Shown here: one piece after another, positions 1,029 through 57,445 of the stretch
Layout: each line of letters opens with the position of its first letter
How positions within the stretch are numbered: the first letter of the stretch is position 1
Program-made: the position numbers and the translations under genes
DNA from: Patescibacteria group bacterium
GTDB lineage: Bacteria; Patescibacteriota; Minisyncoccia; Phycocordibacterales; Phycocordibacteraceae
NCBI GenBank assembly: GCA_004322365.1
Contig: SCTS01000005.1
Span: 3,697 to 67,696 of the forward strand
DNA length: 64,000 bases
Direction of reading: 5' to 3'
The notes under the pieces: model-generated
The model's input: only the letters and a program-made list of their open reading frames with translations
What the model was told of the DNA's origin: nothing
Databases searched by the model: none

Positions 1029-1338
1029 TTGGTAAGGTTGTCTCTACAACATTAACGATTTGGTCAGCAGTATCAGCAACGAGCCAGAGGTCTTGTTTGT
1101 TGTATGCTTCATCGCTTGCATCGTAGAAATTCGAACCGTCTGCTGCACCCGAGTTGAGAACAAAATCCCAAGAGTTACTGTTCGGGTCGGCAATTGGCGC
1201 AGAGCCAAACTTTCCATAGACGAGACCAGTGTTGCCTGCTGATATTGAATTAGGCAACAACTGCACTGTAATTTGATGACGATGAGAATTTGGTCTCGCC
1301 ACCTGTATTGGATTAAGTCCTACTGCGATACGAGCCAT
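997..1338 (-). CDS. hypothetical protein (phage-module associated)
   Basis: 113-aa ORF tightly packed between the capsid-like and lysis genes. No recognisable motif. Confidence 0.4.
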   Translation of the reverse strand: MARIAVGLNPIQVARPNSHRHQITVQLLPNSISAGNTGLVYGKFGSAPIADPNSNSWDFVLNSGAADGSNFYDASDEAYNKQDLWLVADTADQIVNVVETTLPSEETKTTTPQ

Positions 1339-1340
1339 GA

Positions 1341-1526
1341 TTATTCACCACGAAGCTCTACAGCTTTTAAGTTACGAACTGCGCCATTCTCCATTCTCAC
1401 GCGATAGAATGTGTGGTCACCGTCTGAGGGTTTTTCTACAAACTCAGAGGATACAACAACGCCTTTACCGTAGTTTTTAGTGACAACACGGTCACCAGCA
1501 GAGAATTCTTTTGTATTGATTGCCAT
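1341..1526 (-). CDS. hypothetical small protein
   Basis: 61-aa ORF separated from its neighbour by a 2-nt gap. Gene packing is consistent with a phage structural operon. Confidence 0.35.
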   Translation of the reverse strand: MAINTKEFSAGDRVVTKNYGKGVVVSSEFVEKPSDGDHTFYRVRMENGAVRNLKAVELRGE

Positions 1527-1562
1527 AAATTTAGAAGAAATTAATGTTTTGTAAGCTACTAA

Positions 1563-2426
1563 CTACGCAATTTCAAGGATAGGAATGACTACAATTGCAT
1601 CAGAGACATCCTGCACATCAAATGCAATTGAAAGCTCATTGGTTTTTGCATCAATTCCATTCTCACCAAGCTCAAAGACTCGGAATGGTCGCAAAAGGTC
1701 TGCGAGAGGCGATGGAGTAACATAGTCCATGTTGTCAATGAGGGTCTTTGCGTCGGTCAAATCATTCCACGAGGCTATTTCTTGACCACCTGAAAGGAGC
1801 TTCAAGCGTTGTACGGAAGTATCAATGTTGCCGTCGGCAAATCCGTTTGGCACTTTGATCATAATTGCTTTGAGTGTTCCTACTGACGGAATACGAGGTT
1901 GGAACTGTTCGATACCTGCAGTACCAGCAGTTGTGTGTGGAATACGCACAGCATGAATTGGTTTCTTGCCGTCTGGTTCAACATCTGAGTATGCGGTTAG
2001 AGAAAGCGTTTCCGTTGCAATATTTGTCTGTGCAGCACGGTCGAGTTGATACAAGAACTGTGCGTTCTGGTCGAATTTGTCATTAATTGGAATTTTGATA
2101 TTGCCGAGGAAATTGTTTCCTGTAGCATCGGTATTTTCACCAATTGCAGGTGTTTCGCCATAAAGGAAAACAGAGAGGGCGACGAGCTCATCACCAAACA
2201 AAACAATGCGATTGTCTGCACCCTTGCGGAGCACAAGACCCGAAAGCAATAGAGCAAATGTTTCAATCGCAACCGCAGCAGTTGAAACTGCACCTTTAAG
2301 GGATAGCTTCAAGTAATTGAGGGTAGTGCCGAGTACAGGAATTGCTTTCTGATTGATGGAAGCTGTAAACACCGCACCTGGCGTTGCTGAACCGTCTGCT
2401 GCATCTTCAACTTTAAATATTCTCAT
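1563..2426 (-). CDS. putative phage major capsid-like protein (or other virion structural protein)
   Basis: 287 aa, same strand, and a few genes upstream of the holin/endolysin. No signal peptide. The size fits HK97-fold or encapsulin-like shells. The assignment rests on context, not on a motif. Confidence 0.3.
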   Translation of the reverse strand: MRIFKVEDAADGSATPGAVFTASINQKAIPVLGTTLNYLKLSLKGAVSTAAVAIETFALLLSGLVLRKGADNRIVLFGDELVALSVFLYGETPAIGENTDATGNNFLGNIKIPINDKFDQNAQFLYQLDRAAQTNIATETLSLTAYSDVEPDGKKPIHAVRIPHTTAGTAGIEQFQPRIPSVGTLKAIMIKVPNGFADGNIDTSVQRLKLLSGGQEIASWNDLTDAKTLIDNMDYVTPSPLADLLRPFRVFELGENGIDAKTNELSIAFDVQDVSDAIVVIPILEIA

Positions 2427-2481
2427 AGTGTCTTTTTAGAATTTAATGATTTGAATAAGAGGGTAGGGGAGTAGAAACGAG

Positions 2482-2904
2482 TTATTTGCTCGAGCCAACT
2501 TTCAAGTCACGGAGAGCCTTACCAACGGCCTTTGATCGTGCGAAATTTGCTTCTGAACCTTTCACACCGCGTGGAAGTGAGCGAGCTGCTTGTCGTGCAC
2601 CGTCGTACCTACCTGATTCTGTGGCGTACTTATCTGCACTTGCACGAGCACCTTCGCCGAAACGAACCGCACCCTTATCTTCAACGCCCTTTAACCAGCC
2701 AACCTTGCCTGACTTCTGCAAACCTTTTTCGTATGAGCCACGAGTAAAACTTTCAGCCAAAGCTGTTCTGTAAACATCTTTTGCAGCAATTGCTGCAGCC
2801 GACTGATCTTTATCAGTTGTCTTTGCACCCTCTACATACTCACCAGTTGCATTTGCTGCGCGTTCTGCAAACTTTGTTGAAACCTGTTGTGCTGTTTTTG
2901 CCAT
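2482..2904 (-). CDS. hypothetical Ala/Lys/Gly-rich protein (possible scaffold or decoration protein)
   Basis: 140-aa low-complexity A/K/G-rich ORF immediately upstream of the capsid-like gene on the same strand. Confidence 0.35.
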   Translation of the reverse strand: MAKTAQQVSTKFAERAANATGEYVEGAKTTDKDQSAAAIAAKDVYRTALAESFTRGSYEKGLQKSGKVGWLKGVEDKGAVRFGEGARASADKYATESGRYDGARQAARSLPRGVKGSEANFARSKAVGKALRDLKVGSSK

Positions 2905-6423: not shown

Positions 6424-6737
6424 AAAATTTAATGATTTTGGCCCATAAGGGCCGTTAGTGCTGGTGTACGACTGCTTTGAGTTCCCCTTCCTAATAATCG
6501 ATGATCGGGGTACTAAAAAAGCCGGCCCGAAAGCCGACTACCTCATTACGTTAGCACTGGCTACTTTTGGTGTCAAGGCTTGCGGAACCCAAAATCACCT
6601 TTATACGGCTCTATAAAGCCGTATAAATGGAAAATGGAAAATAGGGTTTTTAGGTCTTTTTGATCTTTAAAAAGCTTCCCCGCCTAAACGCTAAATGATC
6701 CCTGCGGATCCGATGAGGCATCGCCTAGCCCCTGCTC

Positions 6738-7463: not shown

Positions 7464-7539
7464 GGTTAGAGTGTAACATTTGAAACTACGAGGTTATAGC
7501 TTTCAGGTGCCAGGTTCCAGCTTTTAAGATGGGGAGAAA

Positions 7540-8139
7540 TTAGTGCGAAAGCCAAGGGATTGGAAAAGGAGAGAACTCTGGAAGAAGAGGCTTGCCATAG
7601 AGGAGTCGTGAAGCAACTTCAGCATGTGAAAGAGCGCCGGTAAGAGCCTTATGAGGTTTTGGCTCTTCTGGGATGCCGACATACTTGAGTGCAACATCGA
7701 GAGTAAGCTTGGTGTGATGTTTTTCTTCATCAAACGGAGGAGTAATGCCTCGCTCCACCATGTGCATGTAGGTGAGAGTATGGGTATCGAGTGTGCGGTG
7801 TGCAAACGGAAAATTAATACCCCCTCTCTCGCAAGCGGCAATCAAGAAATCTCTATCAAAAGATGGGTTTTGTCCTACAAAAGTTCGATCATGTACAGTA
7901 AGTGTCCATGAAATAAAATCTTGCACGAGCTCTATTTCGCTTTTCTTTGAAAGATCAATGGCTTGTGCGTGTGAAAAACCATTAACCCCAAGTGCCTCTT
8001 CATTAATATGAGCTCCGTCCCATACCCTACACTCGCCATAAAAACGATTCGTAGGAGTAGCAACATCAACTCCCCCAATTGAGAGTATTGAATTCTTATG
8101 AGACTCTGTGCCTGAGCATTCGATATCTAGAGCAATCAT
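7540..8139 (-). CDS. DEDDh-family 3'-5' exonuclease (DnaQ/RNase T-like)
   Basis: MIALDIECSGT... (Exo I, D-x-E); ...FVGQNPSFDRDFL... (Exo II); ...HKALTGALSHAEV (Exo III, H-x4-D-like). Confidence 0.65.
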   Translation of the reverse strand: MIALDIECSGTESHKNSILSIGGVDVATPTNRFYGECRVWDGAHINEEALGVNGFSHAQAIDLSKKSEIELVQDFISWTLTVHDRTFVGQNPSFDRDFLIAACERGGINFPFAHRTLDTHTLTYMHMVERGITPPFDEEKHHTKLTLDVALKYVGIPEEPKPHKALTGALSHAEVASRLLYGKPLLPEFSPFPIPWLSH

Positions 8140-8274
8140 CTTACTAGGGTACAGGTTCTAGGTTCTAGGTGCCAGCTTTTTATGAACTAAAACTATGCCT
8201 TAAACCTAGAAGCTAGCACCTAGAACCTTCTAAAAATCACCCCGTGCATCTCTCATGCTCTCAGGCATTTTCAC

Positions 8275-8316
8275 CTGTATAGTTTAATCTAACGATCGTT
8301 AAATTAAACTATACAG
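8275..8316. repeat. family-B 42-bp palindromic repeat, copy 1 (ctgtatagtttaatctaacgatcgttaaattaaactatacag), followed by a T-run
   Basis: One of 4 near-identical palindromes in the window (see findings). Located 3' of the Ada-like gene. Confidence 0.8.
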
Positions 8317-8391
8317 TTCTTTTTTCATCTTTATGTGTTTATTTGATTTGAAAAGCTAAAACCTAACACCTAGAACCTAGCCCCTTCCCCG

Positions 8392-9757: not shown

Positions 9758-9849
9758 TCCTATCAGTTTACAGGTTTCAGCTGTCAGGTGCCAGCTTTTT
9801 TTCTGAATTCAAAGCTGGAAGCTGAAAGCCGACAGCTGAAAGCTAACTC

Positions 9850-11064: not shown

Positions 11065-11209
11065 TGTTTCCTATTATGCCACACTCGAGTAGGTGTCAGG
11101 TTTTAGGTTACAGGTTTCAGCGTGTGGATACTAAACCGAGAAGCTCAAACCCTCTCCCCTGAAAGCTGAAAGCTGGCACCTGAAAGCTCATCAAAACAGG
11201 TATACTGTT

Positions 11210-12127: not shown

Positions 12128-12152
12128 ACCCGGAACGGGTCAGGTACTAGGT

Positions 12153-12192
12153 GCTAGGCGATGCTTCATCGGATCCGAAGGGATCATTTAGC
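12153..12192. repeat. family-C 40-bp repeat, copy 2 (gctaggcgatgcttcatcggatccgaagggatcatttagc)
   Basis: 4 copies in the window, all sharing the core atcggatccgaagggatca. Flanked by family-A heptamer arrays. Confidence 0.8.
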
Positions 12193-12321: not shown

Positions 12322-13719
12322 GTGCTACAATGCACTGCTATGGCAAACCAAGGTGCACGAATCCCTCCACAATCCACTGAAGCAGAGCGAGCACTTTTAG
12401 GCTCAGTGATGATCAAGCCTGACTCAATTCATGAAGTCACCGACTTCGTTTCTTCTGATTCTTTTTACGTAGAAAAACATCGTCTTATTTACCGAGCGTT
12501 CACTGATCTTACGACCGGCGGTAATCCTATTGACCTATTGTCTACCGCCAATCGTCTTAAAGAAACAAATGACTTAGAGCGTGCCGGTGGTAACGCATAC
12601 TTGGCTGAACTCGTGAGCGCAGTACCAAGCTCAGCAAACCTCAAACACTATGCTGAAATTGTTCAGAAAAAATCAATGATGCGTTCTCTCATTTCTGCAT
12701 CGTCAGACATTGGCGAGATGGGCTATGACGAATCGCAAGATATTGATGAATTATTGAATAGTGCTGAAAAAAGAATTTACGAAGTAACAAGCTCTCCTTC
12801 TGTTAGAAAGTTCGTCGCCATTGGAGATGCACTTGGAGAAGCGTGGGAGCGTTTTGATAACCTCCACAAAGGCGAATACCAAATGCGTGGCATTCCCACC
12901 GGCTTTGATGCCCTCGACAACATGCTTGCTGGCTTTCAACGCTCTGACCTCATAATCCTTGCCGCTCGTCCTTCCGCAGGTAAAACAGCTTTTGCCTTGG
13001 ACATTGCACGACAAACCGCCATTAAGCACGGCACACCGGTGGGAATTTTTTCACTTGAAATGAGCGCCCAACAATTGGTTGACCGTATGCTCGCAGCTGA
13101 GGCTCGAGTAGATGCATGGAAACTCCGTACTGGAAAAATTTCTACTGATGAAGAGTTTGAAAGAATTCGTGATGCCATGGGTCGTCTGTCTAAAGCTCCT
13201 ATCCATATCGATGATCAACCTGCAACAAATGCACTCGGTATGCGTTCAGCCGCTCGTCGATTAAAACGAGAGCACGGTATTGGCCTCCTTGTGGTTGACT
13301 ACCTCCAGCTTATGAGCCCAACATCGTCTCGCTCATCAGACTCAATGGTTCAGCAAGTCACCGAAATCTCTCGTTCTCTAAAAACCCTCGCTCGTGAACT
13401 CGATGTTCCTGTACTTGCACTCTCCCAGCTTTCGCGTGCCATTGAACAAAGGCGAGGTCGTCCTCGCCTCTCAGACCTTCGTGACTCAGGCTCAATCGAG
13501 CAGGACGCAGACGTCGTTATGTTCATTCACAATGAAGATAGGTACAACGACAACAAAGAAGAGCGCAGTAATGTTACTGAAATCTTGATTGAAAAACACC
13601 GCAATGGTCGCACAGGGAAAATAGATCTCTTCTTCGATGTAGAACGAGCAACCTTCCTTCCTATTGAAAAATCAGGCTTCAGTGGAGGAGTGCCGGGAAA
13701 TGCTCAGGATGATTTTTGA
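12322..13719 (+). CDS. dnaB: replicative DNA helicase DnaB
   Basis: Walker A (ARPSAGKTAF), RecA-like motifs (VVDYLQLM, SQLSR). 465 aa. Possible alternative start at 12340 (MANQG). A TACAAT -10-like box lies about 15 nt upstream. Confidence 0.92.
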   Translation: MLQCTAMANQGARIPPQSTEAERALLGSVMIKPDSIHEVTDFVSSDSFYVEKHRLIYRAFTDLTTGGNPIDLLSTANRLKETNDLERAGGNAYLAELVSAVPSSANLKHYAEIVQKKSMMRSLISASSDIGEMGYDESQDIDELLNSAEKRIYEVTSSPSVRKFVAIGDALGEAWERFDNLHKGEYQMRGIPTGFDALDNMLAGFQRSDLIILAARPSAGKTAFALDIARQTAIKHGTPVGIFSLEMSAQQLVDRMLAAEARVDAWKLRTGKISTDEEFERIRDAMGRLSKAPIHIDDQPATNALGMRSAARRLKREHGIGLLVVDYLQLMSPTSSRSSDSMVQQVTEISRSLKTLARELDVPVLALSQLSRAIEQRRGRPRLSDLRDSGSIEQDADVVMFIHNEDRYNDNKEERSNVTEILIEKHRNGRTGKIDLFFDVERATFLPIEKSGFSGGVPGNAQDDF

Positions 13720-13726
13720 TTAAAAA

Positions 13727-13770
13727 GCTGTCAGGCGATTCTTAATCGGATCCGAAGGGATCACCTAGCT
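13727..13770. repeat. family-C repeat, copy 3
   Basis: gctgtcaggcgattcttaatcggatccgaagggatcacctagct. Confidence 0.75.
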
Positions 13771-13833
13771 GTTAGCTTTCAGTGTTCAGCGTTTTCACTT
13801 CTTAAATCAAATAAATACAGATATTAAAAATAT

Positions 13834-13875
13834 CTGTATAGTATAATTTAACGACCGTTAAATTATACTATACAG
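13834..13875. repeat. family-B palindrome, copy 2 (ctgtatagtataatttaacgaccgttaaattatactatacag)
   Basis: Perfect 42-bp palindrome between dnaB and recR. Preceded by a second small palindrome, cagatattaaaaatatctg. Confidence 0.8.
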
Positions 13876-13929
13876 TTACAAACAAGAAAAAGCTGGCACC
13901 TGTAAGATGTAAGCTGTAAGCTAGTTGTT

Positions 13930-15570: not shown

Positions 15571-15612
15571 GTTCGTACCTGTATAGTATAATCTAACGGT
15601 CGTTAGATTATA
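15571..15612. repeat. family-B palindrome, copy 3 (ctgtatagtataatctaacggtcgttagattatactatacag)
   Basis: Carries mirrored (compensatory) substitutions relative to copy 2. Lies 3' of glmS. Confidence 0.8.
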
Positions 15613-15747
15613 CTATACAGGTCTTTTGACTCTTAATTCGGCCATTTGATTTAAGGGGTGGAACAGCTGACACCTATTCTACGCAAGCAAAGCTTCCTCT
15701 CATCGTTCGTTCGGGAATATTCAAACCTAGCACCTAACATCTCCTAT

Positions 15748-25144: not shown

Positions 25145-25387
25145 CTAGAGATTTCTTATCTTCTCTATAAAATGCTCTTTTGAAATACTTAGGGTTCTTA
25201 GGTTATTCAATATTATGAAATCAGGGAGAGATTTATAACGAGGAACGATTATTGGTCTAGCCAGACCAATTTTCTTGTATTTATTATGACTACCTACCTT
25301 ACCTTTGAATACACAGCCCTCAACAATGAGAAACCTTTCGAACCTCCTCCAATCTATGTTTCCAACCTCCTTCATGGAGGATTTCAA
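25145..25387 (-). CDS. hicA: HicA-family toxin (YcfA-like mRNA interferase)
   Basis: 80 aa with ...GCVFKGKVGSHNKYKK...ARPIIVPRYKSLP... (the GSH-x-x-y motif of HicA). Overlaps the hicB stop by 4 nt. Confidence 0.75.
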   Translation of the reverse strand: MKSSMKEVGNIDWRRFERFLIVEGCVFKGKVGSHNKYKKIGLARPIIVPRYKSLPDFIILNNLRTLSISKEHFIEKIRNL

Positions 25388-25704
25388 GCTAACGCAGGAA
25401 CTTTAACTCCGATTGATTCTTGGGAAACTACAGGCGGTACCCACGAAGCTTGCTTAAGGTCTTTTTTCCAACCCAACCCACTCAACACTTCGTCAACCGT
25501 ATTACTCTCTACTAAGTCATCAAAAAATATTTGAACTGCCTCTTCAAACATTTTCTTAGCTTCTGTTTTATTTTGACCACACGTTGAAAGATCTAAAGAG
25601 GGCGTATAGGCAATTACCGTAGTACCTTCTTCAATAAAAGCCACTGGCAGACTTACTGCCAACTCAGTAACACGGATTCTAGGCTGTGAATTCAACCAAT
25701 TCAT
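25384..25704 (-). CDS. hicB: HicB-family antitoxin
   Basis: 106 aa. N-terminal HicB-like fold pattern (VAFIEEGTTVIAYTPSLDLSTCGQNKTEAKKMFEEAVQIFFDD) comparable to UPF0150/HicB (EDGGYxAxxPxLPGCxSxGxTxEEAxxNxxEAI). Confidence 0.7.
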   Translation of the reverse strand: MNWLNSQPRIRVTELAVSLPVAFIEEGTTVIAYTPSLDLSTCGQNKTEAKKMFEEAVQIFFDDLVESNTVDEVLSGLGWKKDLKQASWVPPVVSQESIGVKVPALA

Positions 25705-25776
25705 GAAAGATTATTGTAACATATAGCCCAATTCTCTACTCTCGTCCAACAAGTCAGGTCGGCTCTAACGGCTAAC

Positions 25777-25938
25777 CTACGAAGTGATAGCTAGTGCAAC
25801 ACCAAGGTAGTACGGCCAGATGATGAGAGCTAACACTCCTTTCCAAAAACTAAGTTGCAAGTAGCCGATGGTGAAGAGCCATGCTGCAATCCAAAATCCT
25901 CCTGACAGTGTGTGGTGTTCTATTTTTATTTTTTCCAT
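25777..25938 (-). CDS. hypothetical small membrane protein (53 aa, below the ORF-track cutoff)
   Basis: My own translation gives MEKIKIEHHTLSGGFWIAAWLFTIGYLQLSFWKGVLALIIWPYYLGVALAITS. It is preceded by the same roughly 55-bp upstream sequence as the gene at 28371..28634. Confidence 0.3.
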   Translation of the reverse strand: MEKIKIEHHTLSGGFWIAAWLFTIGYLQLSFWKGVLALIIWPYYLGVALAITS

Positions 25939-26003
25939 ATTTTTAAATAATTATTAATGATGTGCGTGTTCAGGGACAATGAATGTTGCCTACTTACGCT
26001 TAT

Positions 26004-27161
26004 CTATAAACCACACGTAGCTTCACTAGATTCTTGCATCATTTTAATCTCTTTCATTCGAACATCTGCTATTTTCGTTCCGTAGGTTGCATCAGCCATA
26101 CTTAACAATTCCTGCTTGCGTGACTCTAAGTCCACTATATCTGCATTCGCATAGTCTTGTATTTGCTTGAGTAAAGCACTATTTGTAGCATACCCTCGTT
26201 GAGCTTCTTGTGCTGAAGCAAGATCGTTTTGGAGTTTTATTTTAATTTGGGCTATTTGCGAATCATATTGGTTTACGACAGAAGACTTGGATGTCGCCAT
26301 TGAAGAGTTAAGGGTCGCAATCGCTGCATCAACTGCCTGCTGAATCTGTGCTTGAGTTGGATGAGTATTGAGACATGTCTGTCTTTTAGCCAAAGCATCT
26401 TCCTTTTGTTGCATCTGTAATTTTTGAACTTGAGAGTCTCTTTGTAACTGCTCAGCTTTTAATTCTTGGCGTTGTAGTTCAAGCTCTGACAAGGAAATAG
26501 CAGGAGGCAGTTGTTTTGGTGCAGGCTCGGCTACGCTTTTTTGTTTAAGTACCTCAACTTCATTCTTCAATTTCTCGACTTCATTCGCCCGTGTATCAGT
26601 TTCGCTTCCTTTGTATCCTTTTTTCAATTTCTCCACCTCATTCTTCAATTTCTCAATTTCACTTTTGAGTTCAACAATTTGTTTCATGGCTTCCTCTTGA
26701 CCTTTCTTACTTACTTCAATTGCTTTTGTGATTGCTTCTCGCGCTTCTTCGGGGACTTTAAGTAAGACGGCGGATAACACCTCTTGATTTCTTGAGGCAC
26801 TGTCCGCGATTGAAGTGAGCAGAATTTCCGCTTGTCCTTTGTCTTTGACCTCTTTTGATTTCTCCGTCGCGAGCGCGACATTGCTTTCATAGTTGGCGAG
26901 GGCCGTCTTGACCCCATCCGGATTTTTTTCTTCCGCAACAGCTTCCATTTCAGCCAAACGTTCGTCTGCATATTCCAGCGCTTTTTGGGCTTTCTGTTCA
27001 GGATTAAAAGTGAAGAAAAGACCTATATTTTCAAAAGTGGTATCAAAAAAGTAGAGAAAGTTTCCCGGCTTGATGCCTGCATTCATCCCTGCAGACGCTT
27101 GTACTGGAGCGACAAAGGCGAAAGCAATGAATAGGACTAATAGTAGGGTTAAATTTTTCAT
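26004..27161 (-). CDS. secreted coiled-coil protein with a DUF5667-like N-terminal domain
   Basis: Signal peptide, then a ...LYFFD...FENIGLFFTF... block (as seen in DUF5667-type secreted proteins), followed by a long E/K/Q-rich coiled coil. Confidence 0.55.
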   Translation of the reverse strand: MKNLTLLLVLFIAFAFVAPVQASAGMNAGIKPGNFLYFFDTTFENIGLFFTFNPEQKAQKALEYADERLAEMEAVAEEKNPDGVKTALANYESNVALATEKSKEVKDKGQAEILLTSIADSASRNQEVLSAVLLKVPEEAREAITKAIEVSKKGQEEAMKQIVELKSEIEKLKNEVEKLKKGYKGSETDTRANEVEKLKNEVEVLKQKSVAEPAPKQLPPAISLSELELQRQELKAEQLQRDSQVQKLQMQQKEDALAKRQTCLNTHPTQAQIQQAVDAAIATLNSSMATSKSSVVNQYDSQIAQIKIKLQNDLASAQEAQRGYATNSALLKQIQDYANADIVDLESRKQELLSMADATYGTKIADVRMKEIKMMQESSEATCGL

Positions 27162-27219
27162 ATCTTAAAATATATTAGTAATAATTGATTATGTGCGTGT
27201 TCGTCGTAACCCCTTGTAA

Positions 27220-27978
27220 CTAAATAGACATATCCGACAAAAATCCAAGTAACGCAAAAACAAAGAGTACCCCGCCAACTACAGCGAGCAATACTTCTCC
27301 GACAGAGAATTTCTTAGATGCTGTATAGGTGCTATCTAAGTTTTTATTATTGAAATTAATTGCTTTTTGAATTTGAATGAGAGGTGCGACGCTGAAAAAG
27401 CTAAGAATCCAAAGTAAAGTAAAAATAGCATCATCACCTCTTGCGGATATACTTCCAGCAAAAATAAGCACAATGAATGCCCAGGCGAGAGCCGACGCAG
27501 ACATTACTTCACTGAACCCTTGTTTTACCGAGGAATCAACAATGCGCTTAAAAAGTGCGTGAGTGAAGAACATAAGAAAGAAAGAACGCCAGAAAGGTCG
27601 AATATCACTTCCGTCAGCGAGTCTTATCGCTTGCCAGTTTCGGTAGTGCCAATATATTTGATAGAGACCAAAGGTTGCGGTTGTTAATGCAATCAATTTC
27701 CAAGTGGAAACCGAAAAGAACTTAATTGGAGGAGTATCCATCTGTATACTGTTTTTTATAGACTCGATCTTCTTTGTTTTTTCTAGCACCAAAGTCGACT
27801 TATTTGCGTTTCTCCAACCAAGGACATAGAAAGCTAAAAGCCCTGGAATAATTATAATTAAAGCGAGGGCAATGTTTGATGCCTCATACGAGTCCAAAAC
27901 AAATAATATATCTCCAAACCAAAGAATTATCCCAACGGCTAGCAAAACCATAAACTGGCCTTTAGAAATTTTATACAT
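27220..27978 (-). CDS. hypothetical polytopic membrane protein
   Basis: 252 aa, about 6 TM segments. No motif recognised. Confidence 0.5.
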   Translation of the reverse strand: MYKISKGQFMVLLAVGIILWFGDILFVLDSYEASNIALALIIIIPGLLAFYVLGWRNANKSTLVLEKTKKIESIKNSIQMDTPPIKFFSVSTWKLIALTTATFGLYQIYWHYRNWQAIRLADGSDIRPFWRSFFLMFFTHALFKRIVDSSVKQGFSEVMSASALAWAFIVLIFAGSISARGDDAIFTLLWILSFFSVAPLIQIQKAINFNNKNLDSTYTASKKFSVGEVLLAVVGGVLFVFALLGFLSDMSI

Positions 27979-28010
27979 AAATTTTCATATATTTATTAGA
28001 TAATTGAAGA

Positions 28011-28277
28011 CTATGGAAGAGTTTCACAAGCAATACCGTCCCCATCACGATCTAAAGCATGGGGGTCGCCAGAGCCTGCTGATTCAAAGAAATCTTGAGC
28101 TTCTGCGTGTGTAGAAAAATCAGCACAGTCCTTATCTGGCTCTCCAGTAGAAAGCTTCGTACGGGTATTTGAATAATTGCCGCCTTCTAAGCTTGTAGGT
28201 TGATTTAAATAATATGCTCCAGTACCAAGCATAGCTAATGTCGCAACTCCAGCAAAAGTTTTTTGTATATTATTCAT
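28011..28277 (-). CDS. secreted Excalibur-domain (extracellular Ca-binding) protein
   Basis: Signal peptide, then DCADFSTHAEAQDFFESAG...DPHALDRDGDGIACE, which matches the Excalibur DxDxDGxxCE motif. Confidence 0.75.
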   Translation of the reverse strand: MNNIQKTFAGVATLAMLGTGAYYLNQPTSLEGGNYSNTRTKLSTGEPDKDCADFSTHAEAQDFFESAGSGDPHALDRDGDGIACETLP

Positions 28278-28370
28278 TTACAGCCTACCTTCAGAGTACT
28301 CTTTAAAAACATCATTGCAAACTCGTAACAGTAAAAAGTAAATGGGGTCAATCTCTATTCCACTAGGTTT

Positions 28371-28634
28371 TTACGCAATGAAAGTAAAGAAAGAAAACAC
28401 TATCGCATAGAATACTGAAGCCATGATTAGACCTACAGTGGCTGATTGGTCAACATTTCTTTTATTGAGAATCCATTGGAAAAGTTTTTGAAGAAGTGCT
28501 ATTGCAATTCCCCACCCTATAATTGAACCAAATAACCCAGCTGTGGCACTATCAAACTTCGAAACAAATAACAAAACTAAATCTAGTGTAATAAATATTA
28601 CAGCAACAATCTTTAGTGCGTTTTTATTTTTCAT
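28371..28634 (-). CDS. hypothetical small membrane protein (3 TM)
   Basis: 87 aa, hydrophobic. It shares its upstream leader with the 25777..25938 gene. Confidence 0.45.
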   Translation of the reverse strand: MKNKNALKIVAVIFITLDLVLLFVSKFDSATAGLFGSIIGWGIAIALLQKLFQWILNKRNVDQSATVGLIMASVFYAIVFSFFTFIA

Positions 28635-28648
28635 GTGTTTTTAAATAA

Positions 28649-28873
28649 TTATTGATGATGTGAGTGTTCAGGGACAATGAATGTTGCAATGATGTAGGCA
28701 ACGATGCCTGGCACCACTCCTGTAAAGATTACCACTAAGACCCATATAAGGCGTAGAAGCACGGGGTCGATGTCGAAGTATTCACCAAGCCCTCCGCAGA
28801 TGCCTGCGAAAACTTTATTGGTGTTGCTTTTGTAGAGGTGTTTGTGGGGCATGGGGGGGGTATCGGAATTCAA
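28649..28873 (-). CDS. PspC-domain membrane protein
   Basis: GICGGLGEYFDIDPVLLRLIWVLVV is the canonical PspC domain. The start codon overlaps the stop of the upstream 2-TM gene (ATGA). Confidence 0.85.
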   Translation of the reverse strand: MNSDTPPMPHKHLYKSNTNKVFAGICGGLGEYFDIDPVLLRLIWVLVVIFTGVVPGIVAYIIATFIVPEHSHHQ

Positions 28874-29469
28874 AAATTATATAATTTTTGAATTAATGTC
28901 TTCAAACTAATATCAATTTTAGTATATTCAACATTATGTTGAAAATTAAAATGAGAATCTACACTCAGAAAATGTTCACTCATTAAATCTCCTCCAGTAA
29001 CAAATTTGTAATATATTTTTGATTTTAATTTTAAATCCTTCACTATTTCAAGCACTTTTGCAGGAAAGGCAATTGTTAATTGTTCTTCAAACGCAATAAT
29101 CTGTAAATCTGCTTCCTCTAAACAAATTTGGATATGGTCTTTATCTAATTTAGTAATTTCTCCTTTAAATTGAGTATCACGTAATATATTTTTTATTTTT
29201 TGATAAGTAGAGAGTAGTGCTTTAAGTTCATCCACCAAAATAGTTTTTATTACCTTCCTATTCTCTAACAATCTATTAACAAACACAGGAATCATGAGTG
29301 CAATTCCAATAGTGAAAAGCAAATCTAACAAATCCAAAATATTAACCTCTGTATCAATTTCAAGAGGCCAAAGCGCACACAGATAGCCAACAACTACACC
29401 GAGGAAAAGAGCGGGGGCGGAAAAAATTAATATCCTCTTAAGATTCATAACCGTGTCCCTATAGATCAA
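28870..29469 (-). CDS. hypothetical 2-TM membrane protein with a cytoplasmic alpha-helical domain (candidate effector/sensor of the GHKL-STAS operon)
   Basis: Two N-terminal TM helices, then about 130 aa of charged helical domain. Translationally coupled on both sides (to the STAS-like gene and to pspC). The likely start is the internal Met at 29448. Confidence 0.5.
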   Translation of the reverse strand: MIYRDTVMNLKRILIFSAPALFLGVVVGYLCALWPLEIDTEVNILDLLDLLFTIGIALMIPVFVNRLLENRKVIKTILVDELKALLSTYQKIKNILRDTQFKGEITKLDKDHIQICLEEADLQIIAFEEQLTIAFPAKVLEIVKDLKLKSKIYYKFVTGGDLMSEHFLSVDSHFNFQHNVEYTKIDISLKTLIQKLYNF

Positions 29470-29815
29470 CTCCGGTTGGATCTTTTATTTCATCTATAAT
29501 TTTATCAATCCTTAGTGGGTTATCATCAGACTTAAGCTTTATATGTTTGAGAATTAAGTCTGCTCCTTTCTCTAAGGAAAGTTTTCCAAATGAACCTGAA
29601 ACAAACGAAGAGGGGTACCCAAATCCTTTATCTAAATCAACAAACAAAACATAACCTCCCTGAACTGCTTTTTCAAACTTTGGCAAAAGAATAGTCTCCA
29701 GAAAAAGCTCTCCTGAAAATGGTCCTTCTCGCTTATAGCGAGCCCCGACATGGTCAGAAAAATCTTTTGCTATGATTATTTCGTCTTTAATTTCCATACT
29801 TAGTACATTAGACAT
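29459..29815 (-). CDS. STAS-like (DUF4325-like) small protein
   Basis: 118 aa from the MSNVLS start. Core ...GYVLFVDLDKGFGYPSSFVSGSFGKL... resembles the STAS/anti-sigma-antagonist-like DUF4325 block. The start ATG overlaps the ATPase stop (ATGTCTAA). Confidence 0.45.
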   Translation of the reverse strand: MSNVLSMEIKDEIIIAKDFSDHVGARYKREGPFSGELFLETILLPKFEKAVQGGYVLFVDLDKGFGYPSSFVSGSFGKLSLEKGADLILKHIKLKSDDNPLRIDKIIDEIKDPTGVDL

Positions 29816-30836
29816 TTTGTAGCTCCCAATGAAGAAGGGTACCATTTAATGGGTATTGCAACCTCTCCTTCTTCTTAGTCTTGAGATCTATTTTAACGTC
29901 ATTAGCTAATATGTAAAAGGATCGAAAAATTGTGTTATTTGCATCCTCATTAATTTGAGGAATACCTTTACCTCGTAAAGCTGTGTCTTTTTTACTTCGA
30001 GATTTAAGCCTCCCAGCTAATAATTCGTCAGCTAAAATCATGTTATCGAAAAAAGGTGTTTTTTTCATAAATTTTTGTACAGGTCCTTTGACAACGGCAC
30101 TTTCGAATATTCCGACCCCTAAATCAATGAATGTGTAGGATGTAATTTTTTCTTTCGGATCACTATAAACAAATAGCCACCAATTACACTTTCCAAGCCC
30201 TGTAAGGTCAGCATGACTGTGGGTATTCGACATACACTCAACGAGAGTATTGTATAGAGGGTCTAACGGTTTGGCATTTCCAAACACATGCTCTGTGCCA
30301 ATGATTGATGCCTTTTTTACAACAGTTCCTAGAACTTTTGTATCCATGCCTCTATGCATCATATTTTCTGCTCCTATAGTAAAGAATCCAGGAGTAATTA
30401 CGTGGTCATAAAATCCTGATTCAATAAATAATGCATTTGGAGCTAGAGCTTCCGGGGCGTTTCCAGTTACGTTGGAGGCATGATGAAATTCTTTACTATT
30501 TATACTTGCAGCCATCAAAGCTACAGTATCTGGAGTCATTCTTGTTACTTTTGAAATATCTAAAAACACCACCTGCCCAAATTTTAATTTTTTCTCTGCA
30601 TCACTAAAGTACTTAAGAACTGCATTGGCATTTTCAACAAGTGAGAAATTTTTAGGTGCAATAAGGGTAACCGGCGGTAGTTTTGCATTATATTCGCGTT
30701 GAAATTTAACACGACGCGCAGTTTCTTTTTTGCTTTTTTTCCTTAATTTCCATTTTAAGGTTCGTCGTTTTTCAGCGTAACGAACTTGAGAAAAAAAACG
30801 CCTAATTTTTTTCTGTGTACGATTAATTTGCACCAT
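29808..30836 (-). CDS. GHKL-superfamily (histidine-kinase-like) ATPase with a roughly 200-aa basic N-terminal extension
   Basis: C-terminal region has an N-box-like ECMSNTHSHA, a G1-like FIDLGVGIF (DxGxG) and a G2-like RGKGIPQI. N-terminus is very basic (KRRTLKWKLRKKSKKETARRVKF). Start taken at MVQINRT (30836); the track ORF extends to 30899. Confidence 0.45.
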   Translation of the reverse strand: MVQINRTQKKIRRFFSQVRYAEKRRTLKWKLRKKSKKETARRVKFQREYNAKLPPVTLIAPKNFSLVENANAVLKYFSDAEKKLKFGQVVFLDISKVTRMTPDTVALMAASINSKEFHHASNVTGNAPEALAPNALFIESGFYDHVITPGFFTIGAENMMHRGMDTKVLGTVVKKASIIGTEHVFGNAKPLDPLYNTLVECMSNTHSHADLTGLGKCNWWLFVYSDPKEKITSYTFIDLGVGIFESAVVKGPVQKFMKKTPFFDNMILADELLAGRLKSRSKKDTALRGKGIPQINEDANNTIFRSFYILANDVKIDLKTKKKERLQYPLNGTLLHWELQNV

Positions 30837-30987
30837 GGTTTCAAATACAAGAACAATGAGATCACTTACCCCCAGGAGGAATTGGTCACCGTTCCCCAAG
30901 CATTTTACTCCTAGAGTTCATAAAACACTAAGTGTCCAAAGCCCACGAGAATTGCCTACAATTCTCACCTCACCCATGTTAAAAACC

Positions 30988-31352
30988 CAACCCCACGGGG
31001 AATCTCTCCTTACAGGAGCTGTACACCTCATTTAACAGAATGACTCTTGGAGTAAATGGATTTTTTCTTTCGGGGGCTCAGAAAAAATGCTCACAAGGTT
31101 ATTCGATTCCCCGCCGTAAAGCCCCCCCCAGACCACGGGGAAACCGGTCACAGATAAAATGCCTGCTGTCGCAGACTAATTAATTTAATCATGTGGTCAC
31201 CCGTCACTAAGTATTTTGTTTCGGAAACTCACAAAATACTAAGTGCGCTCGACCCCGGCTCACGGTCGCTTTGCGACATCGTTCCGCCCGTCACAAACTG
31301 AAAAAAGCCCAACTAAGGGCTTGTTTTCTAGTTTGTGACCCCACGGGGAATC
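30988..31352. repeat. degenerate direct repeats derived from the 3' end of tRNA-Glu (att-site-like scars): at least 3 copies of the ccccacggggaatc core plus two roughly 65-bp hairpin units resembling the tRNA T-arm
   Basis: tgaccccacggggaatc occurs at 31336-31352 and again as the tRNA 3' end at 31509-31525. caaccccacggggaatc is at 30988-31004, and gaccacggggaaac near 31131. The units ggattttttctttcgg..ctcagaaaaaatgc.cacaaggt..ttcgattccccgccgtaaagc repeat at about 31062-31125 and 31383-31445. Confidence 0.75.
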
Positions 31353-31508
31353 TCTCCTTACAGGAGCTGTACACCTTGTGGATTTTTTCTTTCGGAAACT
31401 CAGAAAAAATGCGCACAAGGTCTTCGATTCCCCGCCGTAAAGCTCCCAGCTTTACTTGGGGTCATGAACAAAAAAGGACTGCCTTTTGCAGTCTCTTTTT
31501 TGTAATCA

Positions 31509-31580
31509 TGACCCCACGGGGAATCGAACCCCGATTCCATCCTTGAGAAGGATGTGTCCTAACCGTTAGACGATGGGGCC
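31509..31580 (-). tRNA. tRNA-Glu (anticodon CUC)
   Basis: Manual cloverleaf fold: GGCCCCA/TGGGGTC acceptor stem, D-arm GTCT-AACGGTTA-GGAC, anticodon stem CATCC/GGATG with loop TTCTCAA (anticodon CTC), T-arm CGGGG-TTCGATT-CCCCG, discriminator A. 72 nt. CCA is not encoded. Confidence 0.88.
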
Positions 31581-31770
31581 GAACGAGAAGGAGAACGAAA
31601 ACTCGTTTTCATTCTCTTCGAGAGAGGCCCCGCTTAGCCTATACCTATAGGCGACTGGGGCCCCGCTGAGAGCTTAAAGTACAGCATTCTTAGTCTTTTC
31701 TCAACCTCTTCTCTTCTCCCGAAAAGCTGGAAGCTGACAGCTGGAACCTGAAAGCTATTAAAAACTTTTC

Positions 31771-32577
31771 TCAACCTCTTGCGAGCTCGGTGGCAAAAAC
31801 TTTTGCTGTTATTTCTACAACAGATTCATGAATCTGTGGCGTCGAAACTATCAAGCCACCTTTAAACATATCTTTTTCTGCACCAACAAGATCAGTAATG
31901 CGTGCACCAGCTTCCAGTGCGACTATCATTCCTCCTGCCATGTCCCATGCCTTGAGTCCGCGGTGCGCCATGGCATCACTCTCTCCCAATGCTACAGCGC
32001 AGAGCTCTAAGCTCGCTGCCATTTTTGATTCAACAACGGCACCCGTTTCAATACACCCTTCTCTAATCGCACCATGCATACGGAGCGTTTGTTCACTTGC
32101 TCCTGTGTCCAAAAGAATATGCGCACCTTGCATAGACTGACATGAAGAAACTGAGATTTTTTTCCCGTTTAAAAATGCGCCACTTCCTCGCTTCGCACTA
32201 TAGAGTTTATTTTCAGCGGGAGAGTACACCACGCCAACTTCAGGTACTCCATCTACAATAAGCCCAATTGAAATACCGAAGTAGGGGTTACCGCTCGAAA
32301 AGTTTTTAGTGCCATCGATGGGATCAACAATCCACATTGAATTCCCCTCTGGCATACCCTTCACTTCTTCGCTGAGAATTGGATACTCAGGAAACTCTTT
32401 TCGGAGAGCATCGAGAATGTAGGTGTTCACCGCAAGGTCAGCCACGGTGAGAAGTGAACCGTCATCTTTAATGCTTCTGTCTGCATCTGTTATTTTTCCA
32501 AAATATTGGAGTGCAATGTCGCCAGCACCACGGGCAATTACTTCTAGTTTTTCTAAAGAGATATCAGACATACTCAA
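31771..32577 (-). CDS. inositol monophosphatase-family protein
   Basis: Contains WIVDPIDGTKNF, the canonical IMPase signature. 268 aa. Confidence 0.85.
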   Translation of the reverse strand: MSMSDISLEKLEVIARGAGDIALQYFGKITDADRSIKDDGSLLTVADLAVNTYILDALRKEFPEYPILSEEVKGMPEGNSMWIVDPIDGTKNFSSGNPYFGISIGLIVDGVPEVGVVYSPAENKLYSAKRGSGAFLNGKKISVSSCQSMQGAHILLDTGASEQTLRMHGAIREGCIETGAVVESKMAASLELCAVALGESDAMAHRGLKAWDMAGGMIVALEAGARITDLVGAEKDMFKGGLIVSTPQIHESVVEITAKVFATELARG

Positions 32578-37593: not shown

Positions 37594-37771
37594 AACTTAT
37601 ATGCCACTTTGTCCCACTTACTTCGTATTATATGCCACTCTGCCCCACTTTATGTTTACTTATCCCCACTTGGAACAACTAGGTTTTAGGTGCGAGGTGC
37701 CAGCTTTCAGGTAAAAAAAATCCCCACCAATGGCAGGGATTTTAGTTTTTCTTAGGAGCTACAAAAATGTA

Positions 37772-47323: not shown

Positions 47324-47418
47324 GGATTTTAGCTTCTAGCTTCTAGCTTTTAGCTTCTAGGCGCTAGCTTTCAATTCTAACCTAGAACCTAACACCTAGC
47401 ACCCAAAACCTCTAACAA

Positions 47419-53291: not shown

Positions 53292-53324
53292 TGGCTCTAT
53301 TGTACATTACGTCAGCTTTCAGGT

Positions 53325-53364
53325 GCTAGGCGACGCTTCGTCGGATCCGAAGGGATCATGCTAG
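53325..53364. repeat. family-C repeat, copy 4 (gctaggcgacgcttcgtcggatccgaagggatcatgctag)
   Basis: Flanked on both sides by family-A heptamer arrays. Confidence 0.8.
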
Positions 53365-53430
53365 GTTTTAGGTTATAGCTTTTCTGACCAAAAGCTGGAA
53401 GCTGACAGCTGAAACCTGTAAGCTAATACT

Positions 53431-55362: not shown

Positions 55363-55467
55363 GACACCACCAGCTTTCAGGTGTCAGGTTCCAGCTGTCA
55401 GCTTTTCACATCCTCAATTTCAGTCCGAAAGCTGGAACCTGACAGCTGGAACCTGTAAACTGGAGGG

Positions 55468-56939: not shown

Positions 56940-56985
56940 CCCCGTATAGTATAATTTAACGGTCGTTAAATTATACTATACAGGG
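56940..56985. repeat. family-B palindrome, copy 4, with a G/C clamp and T-run (ccccgtatagtataatttaacggtcgttaaattatactatacagggg ttttt); probable bidirectional terminator
   Basis: Between convergent genes fmt (+) and the M24 peptidase (-). Confidence 0.8.
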
Positions 56986-57445
56986 GTTTTTAACACGCTA
57001 GGTTTTTGATGAGTGATCTTTTTACCTTTTCCTCCCTCTGGGTGATATTCACCCTGCTTGCGTACAAAACTAATAAAAAGCGCGGCTATTCTGTCTACAA
57101 CTTCTGGTTCAAGGTTTGGATCAAATGGATTGAGAGTGCTTGGATCAGGTACTTCTTCTTTCTTTCCCTCTCCCATATTTTTTGTATAAAAATAGAACTA
57201 ATTATCTGTAATCAAAATTTGAAAATCTTCTGGACCAGCCTCGTATATTCGCGCCTTTTGACCTGGCTGAAGTCTGGACTGCACGGCAGTAAACTCTCTG
57301 AGGGCTTGCTCGCGAGTTGGAAGACTGATGTAAAACCACTCATCAGATTTTAGACTTTCTGTAGACATATTTTCTATATATTAGCCTTTACATAAAAATT
57401 ATACCTTCACCGAGGTAAGTGTCAATAGAGCTAAAAACACATACC

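Follow-up and report, generated by a model that had tools for sequence, protein, structure and literature searches.

Integration at transfer RNA (tRNA) genes is a textbook theme. Among described systems, the tRNA-anchored islands and tycheposons of Prochlorococcus (Hackl et al.) insert at the 3′ ends of tRNA or transfer-messenger RNA (tmRNA) genes, regenerate the gene and leave direct repeats of its 3′ end, and their serial integration pushes older elements outward (10.1101/2020.12.28.424599). Here we analysed a stretch of 64,000 nucleotides from a Patescibacteria group bacterium (assembly GCA_004322365.1, contig SCTS01000005.1, positions 3,697 to 67,696; hereafter the window) and found, behind its tRNA-Glu(CUC) gene, an array of short structured modules that resembles these systems in the traits just named and also in its partial tRNAs, its decayed remnants and its place in a hypervariable accessory and defence island at a tRNA. 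The reading that we prefer, at a probability of roughly one half, is serial site-specific insertion of non-autonomous modules; because the modules encode nothing, the recombinase would have to act in trans.

The modules differ from tycheposon-type elements in scale and build. The latter measure kilobases and carry their own integrase and often replication genes, whereas each module is about 155–175 bp long, codes for nothing, and contains an inverted copy of the attachment segment and a conserved three-way fold. Tycheposon hallmark genes are absent from the window, in which the pattern of serial integration and partial tRNAs is present. Miniature inverted-repeat transposable elements and repetitive extragenic palindromes (REP) are likewise small, non-coding, strongly folded, multi-copy and furnished with inverted terminal segments, but the arms of the modules equal their target, the duplication is not of fixed length and insertion is confined to tRNA and tmRNA 3′ ends. 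A search of the literature found no description of such modules, only general papers on integration and the tycheposon preprint.

The repeat array spans approximately positions 30883 to 31508. Its parts are given below from the tRNA gene outward with the evidence for each, together with the neighbouring accessory genes; L055 denotes a related locus with approximately 89% DNA identity to the window, and R1 the covariance model of the first of two module classes.

31509–31580, minus strand: tRNA-Glu(CUC) gene, anticodon CTC (ARAGORN; Rfam tRNA, 60.4 bits)
31466–31508, no strand assigned: proximal spacer with a bidirectional terminator-like hairpin at 31476–31494 between an A-run and a T-run (terminator scan, both strands)
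31336–31464, minus strand (uncertain; minus is the tRNA sense): intact class-1 module, module B (folds, covariance model R1, covariation)
31336–31352, minus strand: direct repeat copy 2 (17/17), also the 3′ arm of module B
31290–31339, no strand assigned: second spacer with a bidirectional terminator-like hairpin at 31305–31322 (terminator scan, comparison with L055)
31194–31295, minus strand: class-2 core without outer arms, in the order GGTCAC, hairpin, GACCCCGGCTC, hairpin, TCCGCC (alignment with 14 class-2 elements)
31126–31193, minus strand: truncated class-2 module (repeat alignments; L055 3126–3167 matches window 31132–31174)
30988–31125, minus strand: decayed class-1 module, module A (R1, 43 bits; DNA fold z −1.36)
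30883–30987, minus strand: older remnants (repeat alignments)
25145–30836, minus strand: variable accessory genes beside the array (Pfam, PHROGs)

The tRNA-Glu(CUC) gene is the only tRNA gene of the window and does not encode its CCA. Its last 17 nucleotides, which on the plus strand read TGACCCCACGGGGAATC (31509–31525, direct repeat copy 1), recur exactly at 31336–31352 and with 15 of 17 positions at 30988–31004, and a copy of their 15-nt core with three mismatches lies at 31130–31144. These four matches compare with 0.68 expected; four were reached in 3 of 100 shuffles, with mismatched copies only, and three exact copies in none. The shorter string CCACGGGGAA, allowing at most one mismatch, occurs eight times against 1.96 expected, a number attained by none of 100 shuffles, and its four exact copies all fall within 30993–31523. 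The earlier note on this locus had described the 17-nt repeats and two hairpin units of about 65 bp, and both are real. The exact repeat, however, is 39 nt long rather than 17 (30990–31028 equals 31338–31376) and is embedded in a tandem unit of about 315 bp (approximately 30883–31193 versus 31194–31510, 77% identity with indels). The two hairpin units, with the TTTTTTCT/AGAAAAAA hairpin and TTCGATTCCCCGCCG, align in two blocks of 91% (31057–31099 versus 31379–31421) and 96% identity (31102–31126 versus 31423–31447).

Every direct copy has an inverted counterpart, which on the plus strand reads TTCGATTCCCCG..TGGGGTCA, and base pairing between them closes a multi-hairpin element of about 130 nt. 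The resemblance of TTCGATTCCCCG to the tRNA T-arm, which had been read as mimicry, is genuine, but TTCGATTCCCCG is more than a look-alike, being the inverted partner that closes the structure. Read in the tRNA sense, the order behind the gene is spacer, inverted copy of the T-loop, T-stem and acceptor 3′ strand, a core of about 90 nt, and direct copy. In module B the outer stem is formed by TGACCCCA (31336–31343) with TGGGGTCA (31457–31464) and the second stem by CGGGGAATC (31344–31352) with GATTCCCCG (31426–31434). The second stem is followed by a short hairpin, CTCC-TTACA-GGAG, at 31354–31366, a GTAC junction and a long hairpin at 31373–31421, while a side hairpin at 31437–31455 sits on one strand between the two outer stems. 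The predicted RNA fold of module B has an energy of −64 kcal/mol (z −8.05 on the plus and −7.87 on the minus strand), its DNA fold reaches z −9.3 and −8.4, and the module scores 123 bits with model R1.

Of the two class-1 modules, the one beside the tRNA is intact, whereas the distal one has decayed. The armless class-2 core folds as DNA with z −3.96. Its hairpin at 31205–31245 is capped by a 13-nt loop, TTTCGGAAACTCA (31219–31231), which also caps the long hairpin of module B (31390–31402); the two stems are unrelated, and the loop differs by 1–2 nt in L055 and a second relative, L062. It could be a shared loop that binds protein or nucleic acid. The truncated class-2 module consists of the degenerate repeat (31130–31144), the 5′ half of a class-2 core (31139–31174) and a fragment that resembles the tRNA-proximal spacer (31175–31193). 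Module A retains the 39-nt block with repeat copy 3 (30988–31004), but a 27-nt insertion interrupts its long hairpin, and neither its side hairpin nor its outer stem survives. Beyond it, 30883–30934 is a second copy of a class-2 3′ end (71% identity to 31194–31245), and 30940–30975 holds a third type of repeat, ending in CAATTCTCGTGGG, which also occurs twice in L062 and once in another relative, L063. On the other side of the tRNA gene, upstream of it, a palindrome-like block of about 50 nt (GAGAGGCCCCGCTTAGCCTATACCTATAGGCGACTGGGGCCCCGCTGAG, 31619–31670) is kept in L055 and in a further relative, L068; it may belong to the promoter region of the tRNA or to a leader structure.

The module architecture recurs widely. 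A scan for the pattern CGGGGAATC-N68-98-TTCGATTCCCCG over 185,579 species genomes (one genome per species) returned 60 loci, where we estimate that chance would give about 8 matches for a pattern of such length in such a collection. Approximately 40 of them lie in Patescibacteria, the candidate phyla radiation (CPR), and have the same architecture with two core classes; their hosts include Saccharibacteria, Paceibacteria and Kaiser-, Nomura-, Vogel-, Campbell-, Colwell- and Lloydbacteria. In nearly all of the CPR loci a tRNA or tmRNA gene lies 50–200 bp away in the same relative orientation, the host genes being tRNA-Glu(CTC, TTC), tRNA-Gly(GCC, CCC, TCC), tRNA-Ala(GGC) and tmRNA. A tRNA-anchored search showed a constant spacing downstream of the gene, +51 to +70 for the inverted copy and +140 to +165 for the direct one, and direct repeats of the tRNA end were found downstream of about 30 tRNAs in the related loci. 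The arms follow the neighbouring gene: behind tRNAs that lie outside the search pattern, tRNA-Ser(CGA) in L048 and L057 and tRNA-Val(GAC) in L021, they are rewritten to fit the Ser or Val tRNA while the class-1 core architecture is retained. The identity between tRNA and direct arm covers 17–21 nt of the tRNA, from the T-loop on, plus 0–30 nt past it, and because this length varies it is not a target duplication of fixed length. The distribution is patchy, about 4 of the 29 bystander tRNAs in the fetched loci (approximately 14%) bearing a module.

Units of the same layout were also seen outside the CPR. In L023 (4160–4435), a metagenome-assembled genome (MAG) of the Acutalibacteraceae, a Firmicute, two tandem copies of 169 bp stand behind tRNA-Lys and the repeat includes the encoded CCA; L007 and L041, from gammaproteobacterial MAGs, have single units behind tRNA-Glu. 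A longer duplication lies behind the tmRNA gene of L008 (Leucobacter), where ARAGORN calls a pseudo-tRNA.

The fold is conserved by compensatory change. Among 11 class-1 elements, 24 of 36 consensus pairs show compensatory double changes, and 96% of cells are paired versus 75% in shuffles, slid controls giving at most 10 covarying pairs. Among 15 class-2 elements, 16 of 26 pairs covary. The class-1 stems are almost purely Watson–Crick (two one-sided changes in 388 cells), and nucleotides at junctions and loops are conserved as GAAR, GTAC and the TTACA loop; the outer stem reaches at least 7 of 9 pairs in only about 18 of 43 elements. The class-1 covariance model finds exactly two copies in the window, at 123 and 43 bits, and further copies in the related loci. 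Judged from these alignments, both the class-1 and the class-2 folds are under selection. The description of the repeats as scars in the earlier note does not fit module B, which belongs to a widespread, structurally conserved family. With Rfam 15, the tRNA and tmRNA models are the only ones above threshold in the window and in 18 related loci, and at E < 10 nothing plausible beyond the tRNA was found over 30600–31800, only chance matches.

Comparison with relatives reveals turnover at the orthologous site. Six loci hold the orthologous suhB/tRNA-Glu(CUC) junction; in one of them, L069 (SuhB 91% identical in amino acids), the contig ends at suhB and is uninformative. The content behind the tRNA of the other five is as follows, where the window has class 1, class-2 remnants and a decayed class 1.

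L055, approximately 89% DNA identity to the window: a different spacer, one class-1 module, then class-2 modules
L062, SuhB 92% amino acid identity: one class-1 module, then remnants
L063, SuhB 91% amino acid identity: one class-1 module, then other modules
L034, 71% DNA identity: one class-2 module
L068, SuhB 94% amino acid identity: no module behind the tRNA

The tRNA itself is 100% identical in L055, L062, L063 and L068. The proximal 43-nt spacer of the window is common to L062 and L063, and that of L055 differs: L055 3345–3407, which directly follows its tRNA, is 98% identical to window 31290–31352. The spacer of L055 is therefore the sequence that follows repeat copy 2 in the window, which has an extra unit of 173 bp delimited by the exact 17-nt repeat. 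Against L062 the window has an extra segment of 348 bp delimited by the 39-nt repeat. To the left of approximately position 30937, the window has no counterpart in L062 or L063 over at least 3.5 kb, and L055 lacks window segments 25951–28636 and 28852–31341. The serial insertion at the tRNA 3′ end proposed earlier is thereby upheld in outline: the relatives differ in the number and kind of units, the indels are bounded by repeats and the proximal module is intact where the distal one is decayed. The set of modules in the window is found in none of L055, L062, L063, L034 and L068, and L068 provides the site without a module, so that the element is dispensable at tRNA-Glu(CUC).

These observations suggest the following mechanism. 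Recombination of the Campbell type within the 17–21-nt tRNA segment would insert a module, leaving the tRNA intact and pushing the previous 3′ end, with whatever followed it, outward. The outcome would be nested direct repeats with the newest beside the tRNA, and the window would contain a single intact module followed by what is left of four or more older ones. Past the array lies an accessory-gene hotspot where foreign genes would come and go. A circle, or a tandem joint of the direct arm to the spacer, would read GATTCCCCGTGGGGTCA followed by TGATTAC.... The anatomy, the conserved and covarying fold, the arms that follow the neighbouring tRNA, the patchy distribution and the turnover between close relatives are shown; recombinase-mediated insertion as the cause of the turnover, the enzyme responsible and the reason for the inverted copy are inferred.

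The enzyme had been assumed to be a tyrosine recombinase, for which we found no sign. That the window holds no integrase proved correct: there was no recombinase Pfam match among the 10 cargo open reading frames (ORFs) or the 20 integrase-sized ORFs of the window, and a regular expression for tyrosine-recombinase box II (HxxR..LGH..Y) gave no candidate in it. The sole recombinase seen at tRNA-Glu(CUC) in a relative is of the large serine type. In L068 it is encoded, convergent with the tRNA, by a GC-richer segment that starts about 14 nt past the tRNA, and it has Resolvase, Recombinase and Zn_ribbon_recom domains. Homologues adjoin tRNA-Ser 3′ ends in L035 and L010, and fragments are found in L016 and L005; the recombinases that relatives carry at such sites are of the large serine type. 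The L068 recombinase ORF (1182–2708, minus strand) reads across the insertion junction into the tRNA-Glu antisense, which makes up its last approximately 20 codons, and tblastn therefore gives matches at every tRNA-Glu locus. The attachment site may lie inside the 3′ end of this recombinase gene.

Several results weigh against the serial-insertion reading. Loci that bear a recombinase have no module at the same tRNA, and no recombinase was linked to the modules. When the ORFs beyond 43 modules were clustered, no protein family recurred among them; the next ORF is co-oriented in 23 cases and convergent in 12, which is not informative. Neither INPHARED phages nor PLSDB plasmids gave a blastn match to the module, and no excised or free form was found in IMG/VR, INPHARED or PLSDB, a single match of the arm pattern in IMG/VR being judged chance as it lies in coding sequence with no tRNA. 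The indels between relatives could arise by unequal homologous recombination or by deletion between repeats, with no dedicated enzyme. A pure role as recombination site does not explain the conservation of GAAR, GTAC and TTACA. Finally, module B is 98.4–100% identical in L055, L062 and L063, the few differences lying in one loop or in the direct arm, where the suhB and Mur ligase genes are 87–93% identical and the tRNA–suhB spacer 83–91%. Such near-identity beside diverged flanks means either strong purifying selection or recent spread, and purifying selection for a host function accounts for it no less well than spread does.

The chief alternative, which we consider unlikely, is that the modules are tRNA-like non-coding RNAs transcribed in the tRNA sense, in the manner of the t-elements of plant mitochondria. 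Those elements mimic an acceptor stem and T-stem beside genes and could be cut by RNase P or RNase Z (Forner et al. 2007, PMC1920247). By analogy, the arms of a module would form an acceptor stem stacked on a T-stem, identical to the stack in the neighbouring tRNA and open to recognition by RNase P, RNase Z or the CCA-adding enzyme; the core would serve to bind a partner, and the repeats would be a by-product of the origin of the gene by duplication of a tRNA 3′ end. The strong fold conserved by compensatory changes in two classes agrees with such RNAs, as does the near-perfect conservation of module B among relatives, which matches that of the tRNA itself. So does the geometry, with the side hairpin in the place of the D and anticodon arms and a 3′ strand that is continuous as in tRNA. 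In L028, L032 and L056 the spacer is short and terminator-free, making co-transcription with the tRNA possible; in these three unrelated CPR genomes ACGAACGAAGTGAG, directly after the tRNA, replaces the terminator hairpin.

Other features fit an RNA poorly. Whereas t-elements keep a T-loop and have been shown to be transcribed and cleaved, the T-loop of the modules is replaced by a 4-bp AAUC/GAUU stem extension and a three-way junction, the outer stem is poor in more than half of the elements, and the modules, unlike t-elements, always copy the tRNA immediately upstream. Wobble pairs are rare, distal copies decay, no Rfam family matches, L068 has no element at the same tRNA and most bystander tRNAs have none. 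The spacer terminators bracket module B on both sides in the terminator scan, and no sigma-70-like promoter was found in 30600–31800; as far as these predictions go, they speak against strong expression of module B in the window. Raw folding energy does favour the tRNA-sense strand in 43 of 45 elements, as an RNA would have it, but the asymmetry is mostly base composition. After normalisation against shuffles the z values are −5.96 and −5.55, with 28 of 43 elements on the tRNA-sense side (p = 0.04). Of the raw difference of 6.5 kcal/mol, about 5 come from the higher G content of the tRNA-sense strand, as the shuffled controls show, and we therefore claim no strand.

A mechanistic version of serial insertion holds that the modules recombine as folded single strands, the paired arms rebuilding a double-stranded tRNA 3′ end within one strand that a recombinase would exchange with the chromosomal tRNA gene. 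We judge it decidedly unlikely. Its models are integron attC sites and the attP(+) hairpin of CTX phage, and the likenesses describe a possible way of working and not family membership. The attC sites, like the modules, are imperfect palindromes of about 60–140 nt with structure conserved over sequence and a variable or branched distal part; they are recombination partners with no recombinase of their own and form arrays with small ORFs, to which L054 and L062 correspond, where single small ORFs take turns, cassette-like, with modules or with decayed 3′ fragments of tRNAs. The stems are almost purely Watson–Crick, the element is stable as single-stranded DNA by its predicted fold, and the one-strand side hairpin between two helical boxes recalls the extrahelical bases of attC. 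CTX attP(+) and the integrative mobile elements exploiting Xer share with the modules two inverted target-like copies about 90 nt apart and a hairpin that mimics the chromosomal target. The order of direct repeat 1, body, inverted copy, core of about 90 nt and direct repeat 2 is that of the integrated CTX form; single-strand integration of the CTX type, which Val et al. are said to have described in 2005, is the basis of this comparison.

The differences are substantial. The window holds no IntI-type integrase with attI and Pc, and the modules have no RYYYAAC/GTTRRRY core sites; instead their arms, TGACCCCACGGGGAATC and GATTCCCCG..TGGGGTCA, vary with the neighbouring tRNA. They are set apart from attC by this tRNA anchor and by core classes with fixed junction nucleotides, the conserved motifs of which are unlike the variable terminal structure of attC. 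CTX is a 7-kb filamentous phage that targets dif through XerC/D, whereas here the target is a tRNA 3′ end and the unit is shorter than 200 bp; the window cargo contains no phage genes by Pfam and PHROGs. The modules lack the defining features of both the integron and the CTX-type families. Moreover, there is no evidence for a single-stranded intermediate, strand preference is weak, and both precedents use tyrosine recombinases, where those seen here are large serine recombinases, which act on duplex DNA.

It is very unlikely that the modules are inert leftovers of large deleted islands, amplified by local tandem duplication, with hairpins that are incidental terminators. In favour of this view, the site does act as an integration hotspot, where the cargo of relatives is unrelated and L068 has an insert bearing a recombinase; the array of the window amounts to a tandem duplication of about 315 bp that includes truncated pieces, and two hairpins are terminator-like. 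Leftovers, however, would not have their architecture maintained by compensatory changes at a variety of tRNAs in Saccharibacteria, Paceibacteria, Kaiserbacteria and further groups, nor would they stay 98–100% identical while neighbouring genes diverge by about 10%. Covariation largely refutes this explanation for module B, and it is still valid for the distal debris at 30883–31193. A hammerhead or other small ribozyme, a tmRNA or permuted tmRNA, a YrlA-type Y RNA, IS200/IS605 ends, a casposon-type target duplication and the homing guide of a CRISPR-associated transposon were rejected on reading of the sequence and the silence of Rfam and ARAGORN, with no dedicated test.

The neighbouring 25.1–30.9 kb had been described as accessory-type cargo. 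The region is indeed accessory and variable among relatives, but no distal copy of the tRNA repeat, looked for in the window as an island boundary, delimits it. Its genes encode HicA/HicB-like proteins, DUF5667, a DUF4234-like membrane protein, Excalibur, PspC, a 199-aa protein, DUF4325 (STAS-like) and a 363-aa ORF that matches phrog_3364, the start of which is probably at 30836. PADLOC and NCBIfam returned nothing for the cargo proteins, and PHROGs only a family of unknown function. The pair formed by DUF4325 and the PHROG 3364 protein of about 340 aa (29459–30836) adjoins the array and is found in no relative, and the HicA/HicB-like genes (25145–25704) have at the equivalent place in L063 a Shedu (SduA_C) gene. 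The island looks rich in defence and toxin genes. Within it, a 67-nt direct repeat at 25923–25989, 27154–27220 and 28621–28687 (first versus third, 90% identity) flanks exactly the 2.7-kb segment missing in L055 (DUF5667, a 252-aa membrane protein, Excalibur and an 87-aa protein) and is a second, tRNA-independent indel boundary inside the cargo.

The window contains further dispersed repeats. Arrays of units of about 7 nt (AGCTGGA, AGCTGAC or ACCTGAA) occupy at least 13 intergenic places on both strands: 31711–31760, 53379–53428, 9799–9848, 11143–11192, 13877–13926 and 55402–55465 in one orientation, and 7484–7526, 8139–8181, 9758–9800, 11084–11126, 37667–37709, 47331–47373 and 55365–55407 inverted. 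One of them lies just upstream of tRNA-Glu, and such arrays are present in L055 and L068 too. A near-perfect palindrome of about 45 nt, CCTGTATAGTATAATCTAACGGTCGTTAGATTATACTATACAGG (78–100% identical at 8274–8323, 13833–13882, 15578–15627 and 56941–56990), is a REP-like or terminator-like dispersed element, and a repeat of about 50 nt with GGCGATGCTTCATCGGATCCGAAGGGATCAT occurs at 12139–12187, 13716–13764 and 53311–53359 and inverted at 6683–6733.

What is new here is a protein-less unit of less than 200 bp, with inverted and direct copies of its target around a conserved fold, at many tRNAs across a whole superphylum. Two structures supported by covariance and about 45 example loci are now at hand for testing. 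If the modules are RNAs, they would constitute a new tRNA-mimicking family. If they are mobile, they would be among the smallest site-specific elements known and would help to show how the ultra-small genomes of CPR bacteria take up and rearrange genes for accessory functions and defence at tRNA hotspots. A bolder proposal, which we regard as doubtful, is that CPR bacteria, some Firmicutes and Gammaproteobacteria share an undescribed class of non-autonomous mini-cassettes, each a folded-strand replica of a tRNA or tmRNA 3′ end that a recombinase in trans would splice in. Were this true, there would be tRNA-anchored cassette arrays with an integron- or CTX-like logic, in which the tRNA gene serves as docking site, and they would possibly be a way for tiny CPR genomes to collect accessory and defence genes.

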